A DNA stretch of 64,000 nt, taken from positions 82,522,001 through 82,586,000 of the forward strand of contig NC_043000.1 of assembly GCF_006345805.1 (NCBI RefSeq). The letters are read 5' to 3'. This stretch comes from Octopus sinensis. Its lineage: Eukaryota. A model generated the notes under the pieces. The model was not told where the DNA came from. It did no database searches and saw only the letters and a list, made by a program, of their open reading frames with translations. The translations under genes and the position numbers were made by a program. Below, piece by piece: positions 3,157 through 62,110 of the stretch. Position 1 is the first letter of the stretch. Each line of letters starts with the position of its first letter.

Positions 3157-3543
3157 CTCTTTTACTTGTTTCAGTCATTTGACTGCGGCCATGCTGGAGC
3201 ACCGCCTTTAGTCGAGCCGGGACTTATTCTTTTTTGTAAGCCCAGTACTTATTCTATCGGTCTCTTTTGCCGAACCGCTAAGTGACGGGGACGTAAACAC
3301 AGCAGCATCGGTCGTCAAGCAATGCTAGGGGACAAACAGACACACAAACACACACACGCATATATATATACATATATACGACGGGCTTGTTTCAGTTTCC
3401 GTCTACCAAATCCACTCACAAGGCTTTGGTCGGCCCGAGGCTATAGTAGAAGACACTTGCCCAAGGTGCCACGCAGTGGGACTGAACCCGGAACCATGTG
3501 GTTGGTAGACAAGCTACTTACCACACAGCCACTCCTGCGCCTA
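3157..3543 (-). mobile_element. SINE family A, full-length, little diverged
   Basis: Near-identical to the copies at 15079-17711 and 53490-53883. Confidence 0.9.
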
Positions 3544-4129
3544 TACAAATATATACAAATATATAAAAACACTACTCTCATTATTATATTAGGAGACTGG
3601 GTGAGTGTTTCATGCGATGTACGTATGAGTAGAACCAGGAGGTTCGGTATAATTTATCAGCTGTTGTAAAATGTTAGATGTACTTAGACTTTTGTATTGA
3701 GTTCTGTAAGTATAGTAGTCCTTGTATATTTGTGCGAGTCTGTGTAAATGCATATGAATGTACGTGTGCAAATATATATGTATGTTTGTGTGTGTGTACA
3801 TATACAGTATATATATTTATATATGAATGTGTGTAATATATAAACATTTAAGTACACACACACACACACACATATATTTATACATACTCAACATATACAC
3901 ATAAACGTACATATATGTGTGTATGCATACACACACGCACATTTATATAGATGTGTGTGTATGCATATACACACGCACATTTATATAGATGTGTGTGTAT
4001 TGTGTATGTATACATATACGCACTTGCATTACTTGCATTAGTATAAGTATATGACTGCGTGTCACTCTACATGCATGTGTGCATACATAGGTATATGTGT
4101 GTGTTATGTATGAATGAATGTATGTATAT

Positions 4130-5693: not shown

Positions 5694-6667
5694 TTACGTT
5701 GGCAACTAAGTTCCCGCCGTTCTTTTTTAATTTAAATTTTTTTTAAGGTTTAATAAAAAAAAATAACAACTAATTAATCAATAATGTATTCACCCAATAA
5801 TGCATCCTCCCAACGTTCAACGGGATTTTCAATACCTTGTTGGTAAAAATCACCCGATTTCGACTCGGAAAATTGATCCAACCAAGCTTTCAATTCTGCA
5901 TCAGTATTGAACGAAGCTCCGCGCATAGCATTTGAAAGAGATCGAAAGAGGTGGAAATCTGTTTGATTCCAAATCAGGAGAGTACGGCGGGTGTGGCAGA
6001 ACTTCCCAGCCATGCGTTTGAATGGCTTCCTTGGTCATATTGGTCATATTGAGGGATGGCGGTGACGAGCAAGCAAACCAGCGGAGATTGTGGCTCATTT
6101 ATTTTTGTTGTTGTCACTTAAAGCATGCGGAACCCATGCTCCGTACTTCTGAACCTTTCCCATTGAATAAAGATGCTTCTCTATAGTAGTGTGGGAGCAT
6201 TCTATTTTCTCTGCTAGTTCCCGTGTCGTTTGACGAGAATTTTCGTGCAAAAGTTGGTTTAATCGCTCTTCATCGAACTCAACTGGACGGCCAGAACTAC
6301 GTGCGTCTTTGAGGTTAAAATTTCCATTTTTTGACTTGGCATACCAATCACGAGCAGTTCTTTCAGCTATGACACCCTCTCCATACACAGCACAATTGTC
6401 ACGAGCAGCTTTTACGGCCTTAGAACCTTGATTAAAAGCAAAAAAGAAGGAGGTGTCGAAAATGCTCGTTTTTCTTAACTTGACATTCCATTTTAATGAT
6501 CTGAAAATAAACAAAAATTAACTAAAATCAACTAGAAAAAAAAAACAAAATAGATTCCAAAATGATTCAAAAATAGAATTCTCGAAAAAAAATAGATTCC
6601 AAAATTTGAATACGCAATAAATTCCAAAATTTAAAAAAAAAACGCGAGAATTTAGTTGCCAACCCAA
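5694..6667 (-). mobile_element. Mariner transposon, internally deleted (~975 bp)
   Basis: TIRs tt(ac/gg)gttggcaactaa(g/a)ttc at both ends. Transposase fragments include an N-terminal HTH (RSSGRPVEFD), WVPHAL and HPPYSPDL. The central catalytic segment is missing at about 6060. Confidence 0.9.
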
Positions 6668-14178: not shown

Positions 14179-15117
14179 GGAAACATAGGAAAGTCCAAAG
14201 GAAAGGGTAGAAGAGGGGAAAAATCGCCAGCAGTCCACGTGTAGTTACATTTTTGAATTGACCGGAAGTAGATGGACAAAGAGAAAATGCTTTCTGAGAT
14301 AAGAGAGTGTGAGGAATTGTTGGTATATGTGTACAAGTGTGTGTATGGTGAGCGTGTGTGTGTGTGTGTGTGTGCGATAGCGTGTTTGCGTATAGTAGCG
14401 TGAGTGTGTGTAACAGTAACTGTATGTGTACGTGGTAGCGTGTGTGCGTGTGGTGGTAGCTGTGTGTATGCGTGACATAAGTGTGTGTGTGTGTGGCATT
14501 AACTGCGTGCATGTGTTTGTGTTCTGTAAGTAGTCTGTGTATGTGTGCGTTAATGCCGTAGTGAGATACCAGCAGCTATAGTTACAAATGTGTGTAGGGA
14601 TGGTGTGTCTGTGTGTGTGTGTGTCTGTGTGTGTGCGTGTTTGCACTTTTGCGTAGATGAGACGGTCAGTAGTAAGTCGAGGAAGTTTGAAGGGTGTCTG
14701 AGAGGCAGTCTGAAGGAAGTGTAAATGGATGGGTATGGATGTGTGCCTGTGCAAGTATGTATAAGCATATATGCGTGTGTGTGTGTGTTTGTGTTTGTGT
14801 GTATACACACAAAAACACACACACAAACATATATTGACAATAATAAAAGGGGCATTACTCCGAAGCAGCAATAGCATTATCTTTAATTCTATAATTATAT
14901 ACTGCCTTTTAAGACCAACAGATGTTTCCATTGCACTGATTAGCCATCGTAGCAATTGCAACCCTATTATAAAACGGGACATTCTCTCCTCATGTGCAAG
15001 CATCTCAATGCTTGCTCTTGTCTAGAATTTATTACATTACCCTTGGATGTGAAAATCCTGTAAAATTCTTCTAAACATAGGCGCAGGAGTGGCTGTGTGG
15101 TAAGTAGCTTGTTTACC

Positions 15118-17312
15118 TCACTGACAGAAGAGTTTGCATTTTTCATGCAGCTTGAAAGTCACGCCTTGCGACGTGAAAATTGAACATTTTGGAAGCACGA
15201 CTACAAGTAGGCGTTTGTTGTATTTTTTTGAGGGCTTAGTGGAGTTTGTTGCCCTGTATTTAATATTTTTTGGTGAGTAATAGACTCCACTCTGCTCCAG
15301 ACATTTTCCTGCCTGTGGTCGAGCGTAAAGACTCACTTTGTGGTGAGAATTGTGTTTTTGAAGAGACGTAGTCCCTCCGCAAAAATTAATTGTCTTTGTG
15401 TTTTCCCACTGGATTTACCACGGAGTACCAAGGTAGAAGGGACTAATTGTGCTGCGATAAGATTTATTTTACCATTGGACGGCCAGGAGTGAGAATTTTT
15501 GAGGGGCGTATTCGCCTGCGTTTTTGAGTGAATGTTTTTCTCACCTAGTTGTGAGAATTGTATTGTGAGAATTGTATTTTATACCAATTTTATAACAATT
15601 TGGTGAAAGCTGTTCCAGTCGCGGTGTTCCTGGGTTCAACTTAGGCCGGGAGTACCGGATGGCCAGAAGATTTTTGCTGTGTTTTTTGCTGTGTTATTGA
15701 CTTTATTTTGAACTTTATTTAACTTCTCTTTTTGTTTTTTTTTTGTTTATTGTGATTTTCTGTTCATTTCTTCCCTTCTGTTGTGCTTCTCCTTTTTGTA
15801 TCTTCCTTATTTTTTCAAAAATCTATCGAACTTTATTTGAACTTTGAACTTTCTGTTACATGGCAAAGAAAAATGAAGCCACTGCTTTGGAGTGGGAGGT
15901 TGTCCCACCCAAGCAGTGGATTAAAGATCTTAAGAAGAGGACGGTGGTACTACGAACCTATTCGACAAGAGCACAATAGAAAAAGAGTTGGCAGACCACC
16001 TGCCAACTATAAAGTTTATTTCTCGGGGGACTAAATTTGCAACGGTGTGGTTGCTGTTTGGTACCCCCAAGGAAGCTAGCAGATTTGCTAGCGAGCCCCT
16101 TGAGGGAGAGGAGATTTTGTTCCTCCCCTCGTATTGTGGCAGAAAAATGAAAAGAGCCTGGGTTTGCGGGTTGCCCCCGGGCACGGAGGCGGGATAGATC
16201 GAGGAGACCATCCGGCGAGGCCTGGAGGATAGCGGGCCCAGGCTACTGAGTGTAAAAATGATTCCCGCGGTCGCCTGGGTGGGGTCAAAAGCAACTTTGA
16301 CCCTGTGGACCCCGGTGGCCGTGGGAGAGATGATATTCCCAGACTTCCTGAGAATGGCCGGGCACAGGTACCCGGTGATACTCGAGGGACGCCCCACCCC
16401 CAAGTGTCACCTGTACCTGGAGCCTGGACATATCAAGAGGAACTGTCCCGGGGGCCGTGGTGGTGCCCCGGAGCATGAAAGGGAAAAGGTGCCCGCCACC
16501 CCCTCATTGGAGGGGGAGACGGTGGAAGTCGTGGAGGAAGTTGCCCCCACGAAAAGAAAAAGACAGGCGAGCAAAGAATGCTCCGGTGGCGGAGGGGGAT
16601 AGCGAGCCCCCATGTCTGCTGACGGAGCCCCTTGGGCTAGCAGTCCCCCCAAAAAAGGAGGAGAAGGAGAAATAGAGGTCGGGCGGCTGATGTTCATGGG
16701 TCGCAGACGGAGTCGCAGGTGGGATGTGTGCCACCTGCGGAGAGGGCTCCGTCAGTGGGAAGTGTGCCACTGACGGAGCAGCATGAAGTACCTTCCCGTA
16801 AAGAGGAGACGGTTGTCCTCCTTTATCGCGAGGGAGGGAAGGTTAATAAATTTCTGGACGGCTTGGGCGAACTAGGACGAATGTACTCGTTTTGCTCAAG
16901 CTGTCCGAATTGGCCTCCGCAGGTGGCTGCGGAGGCGGTTACGGAAAAAACTTTGTCAAAGGTCACAGCGACCTTTGACAAGAAAGAATTCACCTTTCTC
17001 TTTTCAGGTCCTGACCTGTCGTTGCGGAGTTGTCTGCAGGCGGCAGGTCAATTAATTCTGGGGACCTGACAAAGAGAATTATAAGAAAATTTTTTGCTGT
17101 AGGAATTTTTGTTGTAAAATTTTTGTTGTGAAAATTTTTGTAAAGAATTTTTAGTATAAAGAAACTTTGTATTCGAGGGGTTATTGGTCGGCGGTCGCCA
17201 GTGCCCCTCCCATTTTCGTTCATCATTATCATCCTCACCGCATTAATGTGTTTTTTGTCCAGCCCGCAGCTACTCATCTGTGTACTGCCCTAGTGGCAAA
17301 TTTAATGAAATA
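15118..17312 (+). mobile_element. Non-autonomous ORF1-only non-LTR retrotransposon (HAL1-like, Tx1/L1-related)
   Basis: 16-bp TSD aagtagcttgt(t/c)tacc at 15102-15117 and 17313-17328. ~740-bp 5' UTR, one GC-rich ORF1-like frame, A-rich 3' end. No RT or endonuclease motifs seen. Confidence 0.75.
15860..17069 (+). pseudogene. Disrupted ORF1/gag-like protein (~400 aa) with degenerate CCHC zinc knuckle
   Basis: MAKKNEATALEWEV..., frameshift near 15960, in-frame stop at 16195. Contains RYPVILEGRPTPK-CHLYLEPGHIKRNC (CX2[C>Y]X4HX4C). Confidence 0.7.
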
Positions 17313-17450
17313 AAGTAGCTTGTCTACCAACCACATGGTTCCGGGTTCAGTCCCACTGCGTGGCACCTTGGGCAAGTGTCTTCTACTATAGCCTCGGGCC
17401 GACCAAAGCCTTGTGAGTGGATTTAGTAGACGGAAACTGAAAGAAGCCCG

Positions 17451-17490
<40 letters not shown>

Positions 17491-18279
17491 GCGTGTGTGT
17501 GTTTGTGTGTCTGCGTCTGTCCCTCTAGCATTGCTTGACAACCGATGCTGGTGTGTTTATGTCCCCGTTACTTAGCGGTTCGGCAAAAGAGACCGATAGA
17601 ATAAGTACTGGGCTTACAAAAGAATAAGTCCCGGGGTCGAATTGCTCGATTAAAGGCGGTACTCCAGCATGGCCGCAGTCATATGACTGAAAGAAGTAAA
17701 AGAGTAAAGAGTATAGGTCACATCTATTGGTTCCAGATCTGTATGGTTTTGTAGTACAAATTAACTCCCATTTAATCGTATAGTCCTTGTTACTGTCCTT
17801 GAAAGACCAGATTAATTTACTAAGACTGGTTAGGAACCTTTTATTTTTGTCTCTAAATGAACTCAAATGATTTGCCGGTCTCCTCTTGAAAATTAATGAT
17901 GCCCCACCGATGTAAAGGAATTCCCTACCTTCAGATGTAACTATACATCTATATATTACATTTTTAGTTTTACACTTATTTTTCACGTTTAGAACAATTG
18001 CAAAGATATCATTTTATATTTCCGTCAGATTTGCTTTCAATTTGATCATTGATTGCAGAATTAAATTCATTTTCACCAAGTTCGGTATTACTATTTACTC
18101 CTTTAGATAACGTTATCTTTGTTCTATTCTAGCTAAACTTTTATTCGAATTGACGTTATTATCTATGTTAAATTAGGTTCTTTCCCTTTCCACATTCTCT
18201 TCTTTTTGAGTTTCTTTATTCCGTTTGATGTTATTATGCTACGAAATTTTTTATTTTCCATCTTAAAAGGAAAATAATG

Positions 18280-18460
18280 CTGGAGAGGAGACGCTTGCCA
18301 CTTAGTACTTATAAGAAATGATGGAAGAAAGCGGCAAGCATGTTGAGAGTGGATGTACCTGCTTAAGGGAGAACAAAATTCTCTTAAAGGGATCAGTGGA
18401 GGAACGTGGTTGGTGGGGTCGTGCCCGTCCCTCACTTCATCATCATCATCATCATCATTC
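18280..18460 (+). mobile_element. Possible short LINE 3' fragment with (CAT)n tail inserted in the PLE
   Basis: GC-richer segment ending catcatcatcat that interrupts AT-rich PLE sequence. Confidence 0.35.
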
Positions 18461-19454
18461 AATTTTATATATCATCATAAATTTTTAATCTTGTCATCTC
18501 ATTCGTTCCCCCGACCCATTTGAGTGTCCTGTCTTTGTCATTACCTTTATAGTAAATCTAAAAAATCAGTTATTATGCTTCGAATTTACTACACTATTCT
18601 GATTGTAATTGCTTTTTTTGAAATTTCGATATTATTTTACTATTGGGTGTTACTATAATTTGCGCAATATTACGACTAAGACAACCCAATCTAACCTTAT
18701 GCTCACTAAAAATTTTCTAACATCTGTGGTTTCTTGGAAAATACTTTTGGATTGCTATTTTAAACAATTTGGAAAAATTGTAATTGATCTGTTTACCAAC
18801 TGGAACGATTGACCATAAAGTATTCTTCGAGTTAAGATCATAATTTTGATGTTTATACCCGTTTTTCGAAAGAGTAAGTATTCTCTGATTTCGATCCATT
18901 CTATATTTAGCGTTTATTTTACTTTTATTTTTATCTTTGAATATTTTAACAGATTTTATATTGAAAGAATTTGAGATTTTATTAGAAAATACTACATCCT
19001 CATTTCCATTAGCACTACGAGAAATTTTAACCCGGTTATCAACAATTTGTTATTCTAGACGAAATGGTCTTTATAAGTGAGTTAGTTACTAATTTGGATG
19101 ATTACTTCCAATATTTATATATTTTATGTTTTCATTAGGTTTATGAAAGTGTTTGTAAATTCCATGTTTAATCTCCAACGTAACATTTAAGAAGTTAACA
19201 AAATCATGTTCAACATCCCCCGCTATTGATAGGCCTACCTTTTTAAAGAACCTAAACAATTCCATTCTGTATTTTTCCAACATTTTACTAGATGTGTTTA
19301 CAATTGTAAAAAGTGCATCATCCTTATATAAACCTCCTGCTATTTCAGAAATTTCTCTATTTAGAGAAAAAAATATATAATTTCCTACCAAATCAGCAAC
19401 TTGTGCCGAATCCATAGAACCCATTGCATATATATGAATATATATATATATATA

Positions 19455-19745
19455 CCCAAATAATAGGATATCTGACTCACTAAAAAGAGCAGTTAAACTC
19501 CAAGTCACTAATTGTTGTAATTCCGAAAGTGATTGAAAAAAAAAACTTTTACCTTGGAGTTTAACTGCTCTTTCTAGTGAGTCAGATATCCTATTTTTGG
19601 GGTATCTGTTTTTGTTTGAATGTACACTGTATTCTTCTCTGAATAATATATAGTCTGTTGACTAATTTTTTCCTTCTCACTAGACCACTGGTAACTAAGA
19701 ATTTTTTCGATAAATATTCTTGCTACCCTAAGATTTTAATTATAT
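19455..19745. mobile_element. PLE-type terminal repeat fragments in inverted arrangement (same family as 59452-60082)
   Basis: 19455-19503 is the reverse complement of about 19553-19602. Sequence is shared with 59452-60082. Confidence 0.7.
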
Positions 19746-20118
19746 ATATAAATTTTTCAACTTTATATATATATATATATATAAATTTTTCAACTTTAAT
19801 TCCAAATAACACCAGATTCTTTAATTTAAGTAATCAAAATTTAGAGTTGCATTGATACACCAAAACTGAAAGCAATCTGTGCAAAATTAAAGGGGGCTCA
19901 TTTTGCGAATCAGAACGGCTAGATCTGCGTCGCATTCAATTAAATAATACATAATGAATAATACACACACACACACACATACACACACACACATATATAT
20001 ATATACATATATATATATTTATAAATATGTATGTGTGCATATGTATATATACAGTGCAAACAACATGAAATACGTAGACGAACGAGGGAAAAAGTAGCAA
20101 AATATGTAAACAAGAAAA

Positions 20119-20553
20119 AGATATGTGTGTGTGTGCGTGTGCGCGCGTATGTGAATCCCCACACATATGTATATATCATACCCCACTTCTTTCCTCTAAC
20201 TCCCATTCATATTTATTCCTCTACTGCACCACCTGCGTCAGCAGCGCCATCACCGGGACATATTTCACATCCACTAAACCACGCATACCACACTGTCTCA
20301 TTCATCATTACTACCACCACCTTTATCACACGTATACACACATACACGCCTTGTCAATTCTCGTCTTTAAATCCCAACCCCATCGCTACCCAAACCTGTT
20401 TCGTCCTTTTCTTGGTACACCGCATTGTTGTCCTATCCATTCATACAGTTACACCCCTTCCCTAAACCATGCAAAATCCCCCCCCCTCGACACACGCATG
20501 CATCTCTTCCCGTCACATCTCCGATCACTTCCTGGTTTTCCCACATATGCATA

Positions 20554-20592
<39 letters not shown>

Positions 20593-21168
20593 TATAGATG
20601 TAGTATATACATATACGTATGTATATATGCATACATATATTATTTATATATATATATATATATATACATATAGATGTAGTATATACATATACGTATGTAT
20701 ATATGCATACATATATATTATATATATATATGTGTGTGTGTGTGTGTGCGCGCGTATGTGAATCCCCACACATATGTATATATCATACCCCACTTCTTTC
20801 CTCTAACTCCCATTCATATTTATTCCTCTACTGCACCACCTGCGTCAGCAGCGCCATCACCGGGACATATTTCACATCCACTAAACCACGCATACCACAC
20901 TGTCTCATTCATCATTACTACCACCACCTTTATCACACGTATACACACATACACGCCTTGTCAATTCTCGTCTTTAAATCCCAACCCCATCGCTACCCAA
21001 ACCTGTTTCGTCCTTTTCTTGGTACACCGCATTGTTGTCCTATCCATTCATACAGTTACACCCCTTCCCTAAACCATGCAAAATCCCCCCCCCCCTCGAC
21101 ACACGCATGCATCTCTTCCCGTCACATCTCCGATCACTTCCTGGTTTTCCCACATATGCATATATATG

Positions 21169-21200
<32 letters not shown>

Positions 21201-21259
21201 TATACATATAGATGTTAGTATATACATATACGTATGTATATATGCATACATATATTATT

Positions 21260-23242: not shown

Positions 23243-23462
23243 CAATAATAATTCTCTAAACGAGGTATAGACAGTAACTGCTCCATAACATAAGGGACGT
23301 TAGCCATCCGAATGTGGCTAGGGACAGGGCAGGGCGGTCTATACCTCGTTTAGAGAATTATTATTGCTGTCGAACAGATTTTCTACATCAGTAAATGTAT
23401 TTACTGTGAAAATCTTTATATAGATAGCCTGCACAGAGAGTCGTTCGTCGAGGGGCGGTGCC

Positions 23463-23515
23463 TGCCATACGTTGACAATAGGCAAACACCTTGAAACCTG
23501 GGTCCGTATGTGGCA
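23463..23515 (+). ncRNA. Type I hammerhead ribozyme with U3-A8 core variant (unit 1)
   Basis: catacg TTGACAA t agg caaaca cct t GAAA cctggGT C cgtatg. 6-bp stem I extendable by tgcc/ggca; GUC cleavage triplet. Confidence 0.75.
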
Positions 23516-23820
23516 TCCGCTTCTTCGGGGAATGATCTCCCTTTGCAGGCTAGAGGACGCCGTGATGGCGTCAGCCCTTCTGGTGAGGTTGATGATCGCC
23601 TGGGGCTAAATGCATCAGTATCACCCCTACCGCCCTGCCCTGTCCCTAGCCACATTCGGATGGCTAACGTCCCTTATGTTATGGAGCAGTTACTGTCTAT
23701 ACCTCGTTTAGAAAATTATTATTGCTGTCGAACAGATTTTCTACATCAGTAAATGTATTTACTGTGAAAATCTTTATATAGATAGCCTGCACAGAGAGTC
23801 GTTCGTCGAGGGGCGGTGCC

Positions 23821-23873
23821 TGCCATACGTTGACAATAGGCAAACACCTTGAAACCTGGGTCCGTATGTGGCA
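23821..23873 (+). ncRNA. Type I hammerhead ribozyme with U3-A8 core variant (unit 2)
   Basis: Identical to 23463-23515. Confidence 0.75.
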
Positions 23874-24036
23874 TCCGCTTCTTCGGGGAATGATCTCCCT
23901 TTGCAGGCTAGAGGACGCCGTGATGACGTCAGCCCTTCTGGTGACGTTGATGATCGCCTGGGGCTAAATGCATCAGTAACACCCCCACCGCCCTGCCCTG
24001 TCCCTAGCCACATTCGGATGGCTAACGTCCCTTATG

Positions 24037-24089
<53 letters not shown>

Positions 24090-26904: not shown

Positions 26905-28536
26905 CACTACCGTCAGAAATTAATTAGCACCCTTGATTTGCTCTTCACTCAAGGTATTTGCTGTCACCTAGTGGCTATATCTCGAACTATTGCTTTGTTG
27001 CGAGTTCACTGTTGCGCAGTACGATGACGTAACTTTGTTTGCAGAGCGGTTTGAGAGTCTACAGCCTAATGATGTTGACCTAGCAGTGCAACAACAACTT
27101 GGGGTGCGGATGCAGACAAATCTTCCTTTGTTTAATAGATATAGGTAGCGCCTCTCAAGGACCGAAATCACACCGTACTAAGTTTTCTCATCGCGTAAGA
27201 CGTTTTGAACAGCTTGTAGGTTAATTGATTTGTGTATTTGCAAGATTTTTTTTCCTCACAAATTCTCCTACACTCTGCTTGGTGACGTCACTTACGGTTC
27301 ACAAAACTTTCTGTTATACATCAAATAAGATGAGAAATTCTGCTTTCTTTCTTTTTTGTTTAGCAGTTTTGTTATAGCATAACATTATTCAAATGAATAG
27401 TTTTAATGAAAATAACTTGTTTTTATCGTTCATTCCTAGATGGGCCCAAGACCTCGCATGACCTTGGAGAGACGGTACAAGGCTCTCTCGTGGCGTGGGA
27501 AGCTGTCGGAGGCTGCAATAGCCAGAAAACTTGGTGTAGCCAGGCGCACAATTCAGTGCTTATTTAAGAAATACGAGGAAACCGGATCAGCAGCTGACAA
27601 AAAGGGTAGGGGACGGAAGTCACTGTACAACCGAAGGGTAACGAGCCGGCAACTGGCGGAGGAGATGCAAAAGATGACAGGGAAGCAGTTGTCTACAACC
27701 ACCATCAAGACCAGATTACTGGAAGCTGGTCTAAAATCCTGTAGGGCCACCCGTAAGCCGCTCCTTACAGCCCAAAACCGGAAGAGGCGGCTGCTCTGGG
27801 CCCGTGCCCACAAGACATGGACCGTGCAGCAGTGGCGGACAGTGATGTTCACTTACGAGTCGCGATTCAGTCTCGTCAGTGACAAGCCTGTCCATGTGCG
27901 ACGCCGCAGGGGTGAGCGCTTCAACAAAGACTGCATTGCTCCCACCATGAAGCAAGGTGGGGGTGGTCTGATGGTGCGAGGGGCGTTCAGCTACAGTGGT
28001 GTTGGGCGGCTCTATGCCGTCGAAGTACGTTGAGATAGTACGGGATACCTCTTTGGTGGCGAGGAGTACTGCTCCAACAGGACAACGCGCCTTCCCACAC
28101 AGCCAAGCTCACAACCGGTTTCTTCAAGGACCATGGGGTGACGGTCATGGACTGGCCTGGCCAGTCACCTGACCTGAACCCTATTGAGAACCTCTGGAGT
28201 CGATTGGGTAGGGATTTGAATGTGCAACAATACAGGAACCGACACGAGCTGTTTGGGGCACTTCTTGCTGCATGGGGGGGCCATCCCTGCACAGTACCTG
28301 CAGGCGCTCATAGACAGCATGCCGACCCGCGTAGCAGCTCTCATTGCTGCCAAAGGAGGAGCAACAAGATATTGACTAAATTTCACGATTAATAACAATT
28401 ATGTGGTGTGCTGGGATATGTTTTAATAAATTTTTGATTAAAAACGAGTTCGTTTCTGATAATAAGTTAATTAAATTAAGAAAATGTAAGAAAATGTAGA
28501 AATTTGAGAAGTGCTAATTAATTTCCGACGCACGTG
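26905..28536 (+). mobile_element. Tc1-like DNA transposon (DD34E), near full-length, inactive
   Basis: TIRs cactaccgtcagaaattaattagcac / gtgctaattaatttccgacgcacgtg; TA TSDs. Confidence 0.92.
27440..28378 (+). pseudogene. Tc1 transposase, frameshifted
   Basis: HTH (IARKLGVARRTI), RKPLLT, WRTVMFT[Y]ESRF, QQDNAPSH...WPGQSPDLNPIENLW. 34 residues lie between D and E. Confidence 0.9.
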
Positions 28537-34177: not shown

Positions 34178-34770
34178 AGGCGCAGGTGGGGTTGTGTGGT
34201 AAGAAGCTTGTGTGGTAAGGCGGCGAGCTGGCAGAAACGTTAGCACGCCGGGTGAAATGCTTAGAGGTATTTCGTCTGCCACTACGTTCTTAGTTCAAAT
34301 TCCGCCGAGGTCGACTTTGCCTTTCATCCTTTCTGGGTCGATTAAATAAGTACCAGTTACGCACTGGGGTCGATATAATCGACTTAATCCGTTTGTCTGT
34401 CCTTGTTTGTCCTCTCTGTGTTTAGCCCCTTGTGGGTAGTAAAGAAATAGGTATTTCGTCTGCCTTTACGTTCTGAGTTCAAATTCCGCCGAGGTCGACT
34501 CTGCCTTTCATCCTTTCGGGGTCGATAAATTAAGTACCAGTTACGCACTAGGGTCGATGTAATCGACTTAATCCATTTGTCTGTCGTTATTTGTCCCCTC
34601 TATGTTTAGCCCCTTGTGGGCAGTAAAGAAATAAGAAGCTTGCTTCCCAACCACATGGTTCGGGTTCATTCCCACTACATGGCACCTTGAGCAAGTGTCT
34701 TCTACTATAGCTTCGGGTTGACCAAAGCCTTGTGAGTGGATTCGGTAGACGGAAACTGAAAAAAACCTGT
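34178..34770 (+). mobile_element. SINE family A 5' half split by a SINE-B insertion
   Basis: Head to 34210 resumes at 34632 with duplicated taagaagcttg. Confidence 0.85.
34219..34632 (+). mobile_element. SINE family B, full copy plus tandem partial copy
   Basis: ggcggcgagctggcagaaacgttagc...gttcaaattcc...tail tttagccccttgtgggcagtaaagaaat. Second unit starts at about 34450. Confidence 0.9.
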
Positions 34771-45021: not shown

Positions 45022-45884
45022 CAGGGAGCAGTGAATAAAATGCCGTCTAAATTACGCAAAAATGAAAATAACACTGACATCTCATTTTAACAGATATATT
45101 TACCAAAATTACATAAAAATATCTTGAAATACAAAAAAGTAAATTATTGAATAAAACTGCCATTGGTTTCAACCACGGCCTCCAGTCGATTTCGGAATCT
45201 CCTGCAACACTTCTGGATGCTCTCCTCGTTTAAGTTGGTGAATGCTGCCATAATCCTTGCCTTCAGTTCATCTTTGGTGTTACAAGGAGTTTTGTTGATC
45301 TCTCGCCCAACTACGCTCCACACGTAATAATCAAGGGGGTTGCAGTCTGGGGATATGGACTGGGGATGTGCTGATGTGGTTGCAGAAATTGTCTGACAGC
45401 CATGACTGGGTTCTCCTGATTGTGTAGAATGGGGCAGGTCCTGTTGCCAGACATAGGGTATTTCAACAGCCACCCACTCGACCCACGGCAGTGCTACCAA
45501 CTCCAGGCACTTGATGTAAGCCTCTGTGTTGAGTCTGAGGCCGTGTGGGAAGATGAATGGAAGCATAAGGTCGCGATCACTAATGATCACTCCAAACGCC
45601 ATGATGTCGACTGTATGTTTAATTTTTATCATTTTCGGTAGATGGCCTCAAATTGACAACGGAACACTGAAATGTTCGTATTGGAGCTACCGGCGTGAAT
45701 GCCAAGCAGTACAGCATGTCGTTTGCAAATTTCTGGCAGAGTGAATTGCGTCATGGTGCTGTTTCTCTCAAAGGCGGTGCCAACTGACCCAATTATATTG
45801 TGTAGTCGACAACATCAAAATCAAGCAATGCGCATGCACGAAATTAATAATACAAAATGGCGACAATTTACCCATCATACCCTG
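45022..45884 (-). mobile_element. Tc1/mariner-superfamily element, maT (DD37D)-like, internally deleted
   Basis: cagggagcagtgaataaa / tttacccatcataccctg termini with TA flanks. Peptide VWQQD...SPDCNPLDYYVW...RLEAVVETNG. Confidence 0.8.
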
Positions 45885-51983: not shown

Positions 51984-53233
51984 CAGGGGTTGGACAAAAT
52001 AGTGGAAACACCTTAAAATTTCAAACAAATTTATTTTAATAAGGGGTAGGACCACCTTTGGCAGTAATTACATCTTGAATTCTATGAGGAATGAACTCTT
52101 ACAAAGTTTGAATTCATTCCAAAGGAATTTTTGTCCATTCTTCATCTAAAACATTCTCCAGTTCTTGTAGTGATGGTGGAGGATATCGACTCCTTGTTTT
52201 TTACAATGCATCATAAATGTTCAATAATATTAAGATCTTGGAACTGTAGTGGCCAGATAAGATGTTCAACTTCACTAGAAAGTTCCTCGTACCATTCAGT
52301 AACAACTTTAGCTGTGTGAATTGATGTATTATCATCCCGAAAGATTGCGTTTCCCTACGGAAACAGTTCCGCAATCATAGGATGAATTTGATCCGATAAA
52401 ATGCTTAAATAGTCTTGACTATTAATTCTGCATTGAAGGGAAACCATTGGAGCGGCACATTTCCAAGGTATAGCCTCCTATATCATCACAGATCCTCCTC
52501 CATATTTATCAGTCGGAAGAAGGCATTCTGGTCAAATGCTTCTGTTGGCTGTCTACACACGTATACCCGGCCTGGGGTCGGAAATAAGGTAAAGGATGAC
52601 TCTTCTGAGAAAATAACTTTCATCCACTGCTGTAGGGATCAATTCTGTAAGTTTTTACTCCACTCTAAAAGCTTTGCAACGTTTGTTTTTGAAAGTAATA
52701 GTTTTCTGATCGCGGCCCTCCCGAGAAATCCGGTTTGTGCTACTCCCGACAAACAGTTTTTGTGGAAACTGGGTTCTTGAGGTGGTCATTAAGCTCTGCA
52801 GTAAATTTGGGAGCTGTACTTTTGTGATCCTTTCTAACAATTCGCGTAAGACTCCGACGGTTCCTTTCTGAAAGTTTTGGTTTTCTTCAGGAGTTTTACG
52901 ATGAGGTTTTTCCCTCTTTCTCATTACTTTCGACACAGTACTTCTTGATGCGCCAAACATTTCGGCTGCTTTCGTTATGCTAGCGCCCGCCATACGAGCA
53001 CCAACAATTTGATCTCTTTGAAAGTCCGATAGATCTGTCATTTTAATGAATTTTAATTACCTTTTTCTGATGATATCTGGAAAAAAACCCAGCAATTTTA
53101 GCAAAACATATTAGGCAACACTAATAATAAATAAAAAAAAACATAAAAATAAACAAGCTTTTGACGGTTCTATAGACTTTTTAAAATTATGATACTATAA
53201 TGCTAGGTTTTCCATTATTTTGTCCAACCCTTG
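51984..53233 (-). mobile_element. Tc1-like transposon with DD36E spacing (Incomer-like), 1.25 kb, frameshifted
   Basis: TIRs caggggttggacaaaata(g/a)tggaaa; TA flanks. Peptides MTDLSDFQRDQIVGARMAG, IFSEESSF and DDNTSIH...DLNIIE (36 residues). Confidence 0.9.
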
Positions 53234-60975: not shown

Positions 60976-62110
60976 ATCAGGTTGTTTCACATGAAATGTG
61001 TTTGAAAGGTAACAATAAAATGCTTCAGAAGTGTTAGAGAACTGATTTATTTAATCAAAGTATGATCCATGTTCATTTATGACGTTTACCCAAAGTTTCT
61101 ACATGTCATATATTCCATCTTAAAAAAAAAAATCATCTTTTGCTGTCCGAATGCTTCATTTACTTCTTCTTTATTTAAGAATGTTTTGTTGCTTATGAAA
61201 AGTTCAAAATGCTTAAATAAGTGATGATCAGTAGGAGAGATATCAGGGGAATAGGGAGGATGTTGCAAAATCTCATAATTCAGGCTTTGTAACTTTTGGA
61301 CTGTAGCTTGAGGAGTGTGAGGACGTGCATTGTTGTGGAGCAAAACTGGGCCATCTCTACTCACTAGTCTGGGTTGCTTATTTTGCAAATTCTCATGCAT
61401 ACAATCAATTTCCTCACAATACGATGTTGCTGTTACCGCTTTTCCTTGTTGCAAAAATGAACAATGAATAACTCCCTTCGCAGACCACCATACAGTGACC
61501 ACTAACTTTTTAGGGTACAATGTAAGGCTTGGTTAGTGTTTAGGTGACTCTCCTGCATCTAATCACTGTCCTGTTCTCCTGCTATTGCCAAAGACTATCC
61601 AGTTTTCATCACAAGTACTGATTTGATGCAAAAATGGTCTTTTCCCAGTCGAGAAAGCAATAACTAGCACACTTCGAGGTGTCTGTGTTTTTTTTTTAAT
61701 CTCGTTCAGTTGATGTGGAACAAACCTCTCTGTTTTCTTGACTTTTTCAATTTTTTGTAGGTGTCCAAAAACAGTTGTTCGAGATGTTTGGAGTCTGATA
61801 AAAGTTTTCGAACCTTTGTTCTGATTTTGTTCAACCAAAGCGTTTAATAACTAATTTTGCCCTACATCTTGGTTTATTTTCAAGGCTATCGTCTCCTGAA
61901 CGAGAGCTTTGGAACCATCTCTGAACAGTTCTGATGTCAGTAAAACATTACCAAAGTCCCGCTTGATATTCCGTCGAGCTTCTGCGACAGAGTGACCCAG
62001 TTTGTACTCGTACGAGAAAATCACTCAACATAGTTTGGTTATCATTTTCGTAAGGGTACGAATTTTGTATACCAATATTGTTGAGAAAGAAAAAGAGTCA
62101 AGATTAAATG
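60976..62110 (-). mobile_element. Mariner transposon relic, frameshifted
   Basis: IFSYEYKLGHSVAEARRNI, FVPHQL, STCDENW, VTVWWS, LLHNNARPH, HPPYSPDISPTDHHLF. One TIR-like end (tcaggttgtttcacatgaaatg). Confidence 0.88.

Follow-up and report, generated by a model that had tools for sequence, protein, structure and literature searches.

A 2195-bp insert at positions 15118-17312 of a 64-kb window of Octopus sinensis contig NC_043000.1 (the window being the whole stretch of DNA that was analysed, to which all positions refer) raises the question of what kind of element it represents and how it could have been mobilised. The initial annotation had proposed an ORF1-only retrotransposon family, similar to HAL1, that would have arisen independently in a mollusc from a Tx1/L1 lineage. 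The locus is a decayed, TSD-flanked insertion in the head of a SINE, consisting of a 5' region, a type I ORF1 and a 3' region, with no detectable ORF2. With slightly better than even confidence, it is read here as a full-length but defunct copy of a non-LTR retrotransposon that is non-autonomous and encodes ORF1 only, its most likely source being an octopus LINE of the Tx1/L1 group. The SINE-head target and the strong self-complementarity of the insert are additions to the initial annotation.

The boundaries were defined by comparison of the flanks with each other and with a copy of the same SINE at 3382-3544, which gave the following features:

15077-15117, + strand: 5' piece of the split SINE, ending in the left TSD
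15102-15117, + strand: left TSD, 16 bp, matching 17313-17328 at 15/16 positions
17313-17328, + strand: right TSD, without mismatch to the corresponding positions in the SINE copy at 3382-3544
17329-17716 (end approximate), + strand: 3' piece of the split SINE, assigned by sequence comparison

Removal of the insert together with one repeat restores the SINE head, which fixes the boundaries exactly and identifies the repeat as a genuine TSD; the reconstituted empty site (15077-15117 joined to 17329-17450) aligned with the SINE at 3382-3544 (- strand) over 163/163 bp at 98.2% identity. The 15/16 match of the left flank was reached in 0/300 shuffles of the right flank. The 2.2-kb insert proposed initially therefore stands, although its TSD, which had been called clean, is not perfect. 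Terminal repeats were absent from the insert ends. Because the host SINE is, in its 3' part, just 88.7% identical to the copy at 3382-3544, the age of the insertion is uncertain. The insertion point lies just behind what we take to be an A-box-like motif (TGGCTGTGTGG, 15090-15100, in the 5' piece of the SINE) and separates it from a presumed B-box-like motif (GGTTCAGTCCC, 17344-17354, in the 3' piece); ARAGORN and Rfam detected no tRNA. Elsewhere in the window, the SINE head has 14 matches, 8 of which span the site without interruption; together, the heads of this SINE family account for 1897 of the window's 64000 bp (~3%). The location is suggestive of a target preference, of which a single site proves nothing. 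Neither a second copy nor a 3'-end fragment of the insert was found in the 64-kb window, the best matches outside the insert being 26-46 bp long (E of at least 0.03), and the window likewise contains no autonomous partner element.

The window also contains other mobile sequences. A decayed Penelope-like element (17700-19661, - strand) lies right behind the host SINE; it gives a weak GIY-YIG match (E 0.006), and its upstream piece appears RT-like by eye, without a Pfam match. Tc1/mariner-like fragments with Pfam HTH or DDE matches are located at 6095-6517, 52655-53056 and 61086-61532 (all - strand), and two more were named by eye (27440-28033, + strand; 45144-45647, - strand, the latter without a Pfam match). 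Near-perfect tandem duplications occur at 23337-24040 (358 bp, two units, 98%) and 34265-34633 (184 bp, two units, 91%), and at 20025-21218 (- strand) a stretch of several hundred bases is present twice, seen as near-identical spurious ORFs.

The insert itself comprises the following features, with the two RRM-like domains placed by means of the structural model described below:

15118-15859, + strand: 5' UTR, 742 bp, T-rich ahead of the ATG and folding into hairpins
15860-17069, + strand: disrupted ORF1 of about 400 codons, split over three frames, from the ORF list and tblastn
15941-16128 (approximate), + strand: first RRM-like domain, model residues 27-98 (pLDDT ~90), broken by a ~28-nt deletion near 15965
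16144-16383 (approximate), + strand: second RRM-like domain, model residues 104-182, containing TAG 16195-16197
16405-16446, + strand: degenerate CCHC knuckle CHLYLEPGHIKRNC, C-x2-Y-x4-H-x4-C, read from the codons
16641-17069, + strand: C-terminal open frame, 142 codons, probably the ORF1 C-terminus
17070-17312, + strand: 3' UTR, 243 bp, with T-rich 15-nt repeats, a hairpin at 17175-17209 and an A/T-rich end running into AATAAA

The outer parts of this anatomy agree with the initial annotation, which had given a 5' UTR of ~740 bp (here 742 bp up to ATG 15860) and a short 3' UTR (243 bp). The single decayed frame of ~400 aa holds in its length and its decay, but the codons are distributed over three frames (15860-15964, 15958-about 16650 and 16641-17069, the last of which closes at TGA 17067-69) and interrupted by two in-frame stops (TAG 16195-16197 and TAG 16600-16602) and at least two frameshifts. 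The first frameshift corresponds to the ~28-nt deletion near 15965, as seen against the relative LOC115225585 (11 nt in place of 13 residues); tblastn of this protein on the insert returned two frames with 26/35 and 130/245 identical residues. The gag-type knuckle is present as a motif at 16405-16446 but degenerate, its second Cys being replaced by Tyr (codon TAC); a Pfam scan of pieces of the window yielded for the insert zf-CCHC alone, below the cut-off (E 0.11). Past the last ORF1 stop, the GC content drops from ~0.5 to 0.33. The end, described as A-rich, is A/T-rich and carries AATAAA (17309-17314, overlapping the right TSD by 2 nt), but it shows no A-run and no poly(A) tail.

The final 142 codons appear to be coding and are probably the C-terminus of ORF1, given that an equally open frame occurred in only 16/5000 shuffles and that their codon-position pattern resembles that of the core. 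No relatives of this frame were found by Pfam, among 402 longer candidate proteins or in the Atlas, and a single-sequence model (pLDDT 47.5, best structural Z 4.3) was uninformative by both measures. A second knuckle in this frame was rejected, its likeness being faint (54/500 shuffles; hhalign probability 0.2%). Also rejected was a programmed -1 frameshift at 16643-16660, where no in-frame canonical slippery site was seen by eye and the hairpins lie ~55 nt too far away.

Two of the lesions are of similar type, since both the stop at 16195-16197 (Trp in the relative) and the TAC codon of the knuckle Tyr (16414-16416) fit a G-to-A change after T. The A of the first stop faces C in a predicted stem. 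Octopus is an animal with heavy A-to-I editing, and an A opposite C in a stem has the geometry favoured by ADAR, but any G-to-A change in a stem produces this arrangement, which is thus not evidence of programmed editing. Between 15860 and 16452, the forced nucleotide differences from LOC115225585 comprise 27 A/G and 6 C/T, without direction; the A/G excess may reflect the genetic code or purine richness. ADAR-driven A-to-G drift was rejected (16 versus 11 forced differences, p 0.44).

The closest relative of the broken ORF1 is LOC115225585 (P0004), an uncharacterised O. sinensis protein of 281 aa, in keeping with an octopus as the host. Of the initial interpretation, the part that is supported is a non-LTR retroelement inserted in octopus DNA, in which a LINE-type ORF1 is present and ORF2 is missing. 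It was the sole match among 1188 candidates (56% identity over 88% of the query). An exhaustive protein search at E<=0.001 returned 17 proteins, namely LOC115225585, at 64% in the core, and 16 proteins at 24-39%. These distant relatives carry an intact knuckle, with zf-CCHC detected in 5/16 at E<=0.1 (two of these passing the cut-off), and an RT Pfam match in 0/16. A profile search of 8000 candidates yielded two proteins, both already in this set, and 0/601 candidate stretches from prokaryotic genomes were confirmed. For one distant relative (P0013, 25%), the longest contig has 2245 bp, near the length of the insert, which may be chance. Sequence searches of the PDB gave no match for the single protein, and the profile gave just knuckle and low-complexity matches. 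Identity to LOC115225585 amounts to 57-73% in the core and 27-37% in the linker; at the level of this alignment, the contrast shows past selection on ORF1, and an autonomous parent would give the same result.

An AlphaFold model was built on the intact relative LOC115225585 from 18 sequences (mean pLDDT 76.9, pTM 0.54). When its domains were compared with known structures using VIA-align, the first RRM was matched to the La RRM (1zh5; Z 8.4, rmsd 2.7, 81 aligned) and the second to U2AF65 RRM1 (5w0g; Z 8.1, rmsd 2.4, 72 aligned), with middling Z values and a match list made up mostly of RRMs. The best Foldseek rows were tandem-RRM proteins (E ~1e-5) with low whole-chain TM scores. L1 ORF1p structures were absent among the fold matches listed, which excludes nothing. 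In the Atlas, the neighbours were CCHC/RRM and ZCCHC3-RBD-like clusters at 0.90-0.92 and ZCCHC3-RBD clusters at 0.90 and 0.88. As modelled, ORF1 is a type I LINE ORF1, with two predicted RRMs upstream of a CCHC knuckle that is degenerate here and intact in relatives.

Matches to RT, endonuclease or zf-RVT were absent in 6/6 read-through frames at a Pfam threshold of E<=10, in line with the earlier statement that RT and endonuclease motifs are missing; the same kind of Pfam test detected the decayed GIY-YIG domain just downstream (E 0.006). No trace of ORF2 was found via the C-terminal frame among longer proteins. The 243 bp that follow the ORF1 stop leave room for at most a short ORF2 remnant, of a size that would escape Pfam. 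For a copy without ORF2, this protein was either supplied in trans or lost from the copy.

The insert is strongly self-complementary, as measured against shuffled sequences and the rest of the window; the trait may be peculiar to this element or widespread in its clade. The coding stretch contains 6 perfect hairpins of 8-13 bp, compared to a mean of 0.21 in 200 dinucleotide shuffles (0/200 reaching 6), and is most densely paired at two places:

16714-16779, + strand: a tandem pair of perfect hairpins (9 and 13 bp) whose loops are almost identical and whose stems, though different, are complementary; z -5.5, 0/200 shuffles
16845-17080, + strand: four long hairpins in a run, the last spanning the ORF1 stop codon; z -10.8, 0/200 shuffles (stretch chosen after looking)

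Folded in 14 tiles of 150 nt, the whole insert lies 149 kcal/mol (+ strand) and 134 kcal/mol (- strand) below its shuffles (z -10.6 and -11.6; 0/30 shuffles each). It is the strongest folder of 28 equal-length segments, with the largest excess among the 27 others being 91 on either strand (four shuffles each). By coarser measures the contrast is smaller. Tiles at z<=-3 made up 4/20 inside and 30/484 outside the insert, after 134 low-complexity tiles had been left out, and the insert forms the best 16-tile run in the window (-2.7; next -1.8). The controls in the window, five Tc1/mariner-like ORFs and two Penelope-like pieces, folded like their shuffles or nearly so (27440-28033, for instance, at z -0.7); the four hairpins of a Penelope-like control are one AT microsatellite. 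Strand-neutral stems, another coarse measure, numbered 14 in the insert and 1-11 in the controls. Synonymous-codon usage does not explain the excess, because 0/100 synonymous-codon shuffles reach it either in the core (z -5.0) or in the C-terminal frame (z -9.1). The 5' UTR has a mean tile z of -2.3 (7 tiles), and 15225-15700, a stretch chosen after looking, folds at z -4.0 (0/100 shuffles). The 3' UTR hairpin at 17175-17209 gave z -2.8 (4/200 shuffles) and 17160-17312 as a whole just -1.3. By eye, AGGGC/GCCCT and AGTGGAGT/ACTCCACT at 15231-15292 would allow an H-type pseudoknot within the 5' region; an HDV-like ribozyme at the same place was rejected, as the spacing does not fit and Rfam gave no match.

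Conservation of the hairpins was assessed via the LOC115225585 protein only, and is only suggestive at this sequence level. Among the predicted pairs in which a change is forced in LOC115225585, 23/32 can still pair (null mean 18.6; 31/2000), and 3/3 doubly forced pairs can be Watson-Crick, which is not significant (~0.18). Changed residues do not avoid paired codons (2544/10000 permutations). Both strands fold alike, with one G-U and one A-C mismatch, so that RNA structure and single-stranded DNA structure are not separable. Rfam returned nothing at cut-off in the window and 11 sub-threshold matches around the insert, without a ribozyme, and the hammerhead core word does not occur on the + strand. 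No hairpin-dense LINE coding region appeared among the literature matches listed, which were mostly RNA-virus papers and one on an L1/Alu 3' UTR stem-loop.

A replicating ORF1-only unit is favoured over a one-off deletion because ORF1 is complete from ATG to stop, both UTRs are present and no seam is visible at the ORF1 stop, which is spanned by a hairpin; a random deletion would rarely spare a complete ORF1 together with both UTRs. The AATAAA at the very end also speaks for an ORF1-only unit, as L1-type termini carry this motif at that position and cleaved, polyadenylated mRNAs carry it 10-30 nt before the end. Counting against it are the single copy in 64 kb, the missing poly(A) tail, the weak hairpin conservation and the ~28-nt deletion, which demonstrates that deletions do occur in the insert copy; in addition, no protein is closer than 56-64%, which argues against a large young family with intact ORF1. 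The same single copy, lack of close protein relatives and deletion-prone sequence would suit an autonomous LINE copy from which an internal deletion removed ORF2, either while it was being reverse-transcribed or once it had inserted, and whose HAL-like anatomy never spread. This history is the strongest competitor, if still unlikely, in that ~240 bp of non-coding sequence would have to contain both breakpoints, with every trace of ORF2 gone, and no seam in composition or folding is seen at the ORF1 stop.

It appears rather improbable that the insert is the 5' half of an autonomous LINE whose transcript was polyadenylated early, in the spacer behind ORF1, and then retrotransposed in trans, with the 243-bp 3' region representing the spacer. 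The T-rich, low-complexity stretch at 17070-17170 could be such a spacer, and the window holds no 5'-truncated fragment with the same 3' end, but the AATAAA abuts the TSD without the 10-30 nt gap or the poly(A) of a cleaved, polyadenylated mRNA. An intronless, TSD-flanked copy whose closest relative is a RefSeq gene model, and whose Atlas neighbours include the ZCCHC3-RBD clusters at 0.90 and 0.88, might further be a processed pseudogene of a host RRM-RRM-CCHC gene, such as a ZCCHC3-like gene or a domesticated ORF1 gene like LOC115225585. We regard this origin as very unlikely: an identity of 56-64% is too low for a recent retrocopy of LOC115225585 given the nearly intact TSD, the 16 relatives at 24-39% differ in their tails, as would be expected of many element lineages, LOC115225585 is not matched by any ZCCHC3 Pfam model at E<=10, and poly(A) is absent. 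Least credible is an element of another class, be it an LTR/DIRS gag remnant, a Penelope-mobilised RNA or a reverse-transcribed viral RNA, to which the gag-like knuckle, the folding excess of the whole insert and its virus-like hairpin density could point. Terminal repeats and Rfam families at cut-off are lacking, and the 16-bp TSD and the tandem RRMs before the knuckle fit a LINE ORF1, not a capsid fold.

Under the preferred reading as an ORF1-only element, the source copy would have been transcribed from its own 5' end, and its ORF1 protein, with two RRMs and a knuckle, would have packaged its own RNA in cis. An ORF2 protein borrowed from an autonomous LINE could have nicked the bottom strand at 5'-CTACTT/ACC-3', presumably a loose fit to the L1 endonuclease site. 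As in TPRT biology, the TT end of the nicked strand may have paired with the A-ended RNA and primed synthesis, and a second cut 16 nt away would have generated the 16-bp duplication. The copy would then have decayed through two stops, at least two frameshifts and the Cys-to-Tyr change. The dense hairpins may be a property of the source lineage, and our best guess at their role is compaction or shielding of the RNA, with handles provided for ORF1p or ORF2p.

If the insert belongs to a family, ORF1-only hitch-hiking as in HAL1, HeT-A and Ag-Sponge would also occur in molluscs and in a lineage that is probably Tx1. This would support the notion that ORF1p is needed in cis and ORF2p can be borrowed. 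Repeat annotation that relies on RT overlooks ORF1-only elements, which are then recorded as 'unknown' repeats or as spurious genes. More surprising is the folding excess, which, if conserved across copies, would imply an RNA structure superimposed on the coding region of a LINE; should the insert be a single deleted copy, it would be no more than an ordinary remnant of a dead LINE. A far-reaching version, which we consider a long shot, is a multicopy, Tx1-derived ORF1-only octopus family that targets the tRNA-like head of the most abundant SINE and in which selection maintains the entire transcript, coding sequence included, as a hairpin chain superimposed on the protein code. It would represent a fourth independent origin of ORF1-only LINEs, a LINE parasite that targets another LINE parasite and an ordered structure like that of RNA viruses in an animal retrotransposon.

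HAL1 was reportedly studied by Bao and Jurka in 2010. The initial annotation had linked ORF1-only elements to L1 lineages, which is true of HAL1 and too narrow, because non-autonomous LINEs that retain ORF1 are described from three clades, as HeT-A (Jockey), HAL1 (L1) and Ag-Sponge (CR1) (PMC5786205, available part). HAL1 is stated to have arisen several times in mammals (PMC5753468, excerpt), and with ORF1-only LINEs already in L1, Jockey and CR1, an independent origin is to be expected. In the literature searched, with Repbase, Dfam and subscription journals outside its scope, there was no Tx1-derived or mollusc ORF1-only element and no link between ZCCHC3 and Tx1; 12/33 supplementary files of PMC10294476 gave no match, and the sequence files left out could hold other copies.

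We infer the parental clade, because the insert offers no RT to place and type I ORF1s occur in other clades too; a Tx1/L1 parent is nevertheless quite probable, favoured by the one knuckle, the 16-bp TSD and the AATAAA end. According to the available text of PMC4120745, type I ORF1s (the class of Khazina and Weichenrieder) have a CCHC knuckle immediately preceded by one or more RRMs and are also found in I, Jockey, R1, Tad1, L2 and some CR1 elements, with the tabulated Jockey, L2 and CR1 examples mostly having three knuckles. In non-mammalian animals, the type I ORF1 is tied to Tx1 (PMC5203782, in part). O. vulgaris has 80 L1-Tx1 families, 13 of them recently active (PMC13282606, excerpt), and many Tx1 families are noted for octopus in the accessible portion of PMC8967140; an unnamed clade of the I superfamily in octopus (PMC10294476) and RTE elements (PMC9115989) are described as well, as given in extracts of these sources. 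Tx1 elements (Tx1L, Keno, Kibi, Koshi, Tx1-Mar) often target other repeats, and Tx1-Mar mobilised SINEU-3, which has a 16-bp TSD (PMC4494074, in part). The insert shares with this clade the type I-like ORF1, the insertion into another repeat and a 16-bp TSD as in SINEU-3; it differs in lacking ORF2 and in its target, as a SINE head is not among the Tx1 targets in the available part of PMC4494074. LOC115225585 has the same two RRMs and the same knuckle position, but its knuckle lacks the first Cys (in the insert, the second), and it stops at 281 aa without the C-terminal part.

With HAL1 in the strict sense, the mammalian L1 derivative, the insert has in common the ORF1-only anatomy and the TSD. 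It was rejected as a HAL1 of this kind, since that element has a type II ORF1p (coiled coil-RRM-CTD, Transposase_22), whereas the model has two RRMs from residue 27 and then a knuckle; a poly(A) tail is also missing from the insert. HAL1, HeT-A and Ag-Sponge resemble it in possessing a 5' region, ORF1 and a 3' region without ORF2, which is presumed to act in trans, and a model with own ORF1p in cis and ORF2 in trans has been put forward for ORF1-only elements (PMC3627910, available part). Compared to these three, the insert is distinguished by its type I RRM-RRM-CCHC ORF1, its one knuckle, its orphan C-terminal part and its mollusc host, with one copy in the 64-kb window. Membership in the wider ORF1-only class hangs on copy number; with a LINE ORF1 encoded, if broken, no match to ORF2 and a TSD from which the empty site is restored, the insert probably works like HAL1.
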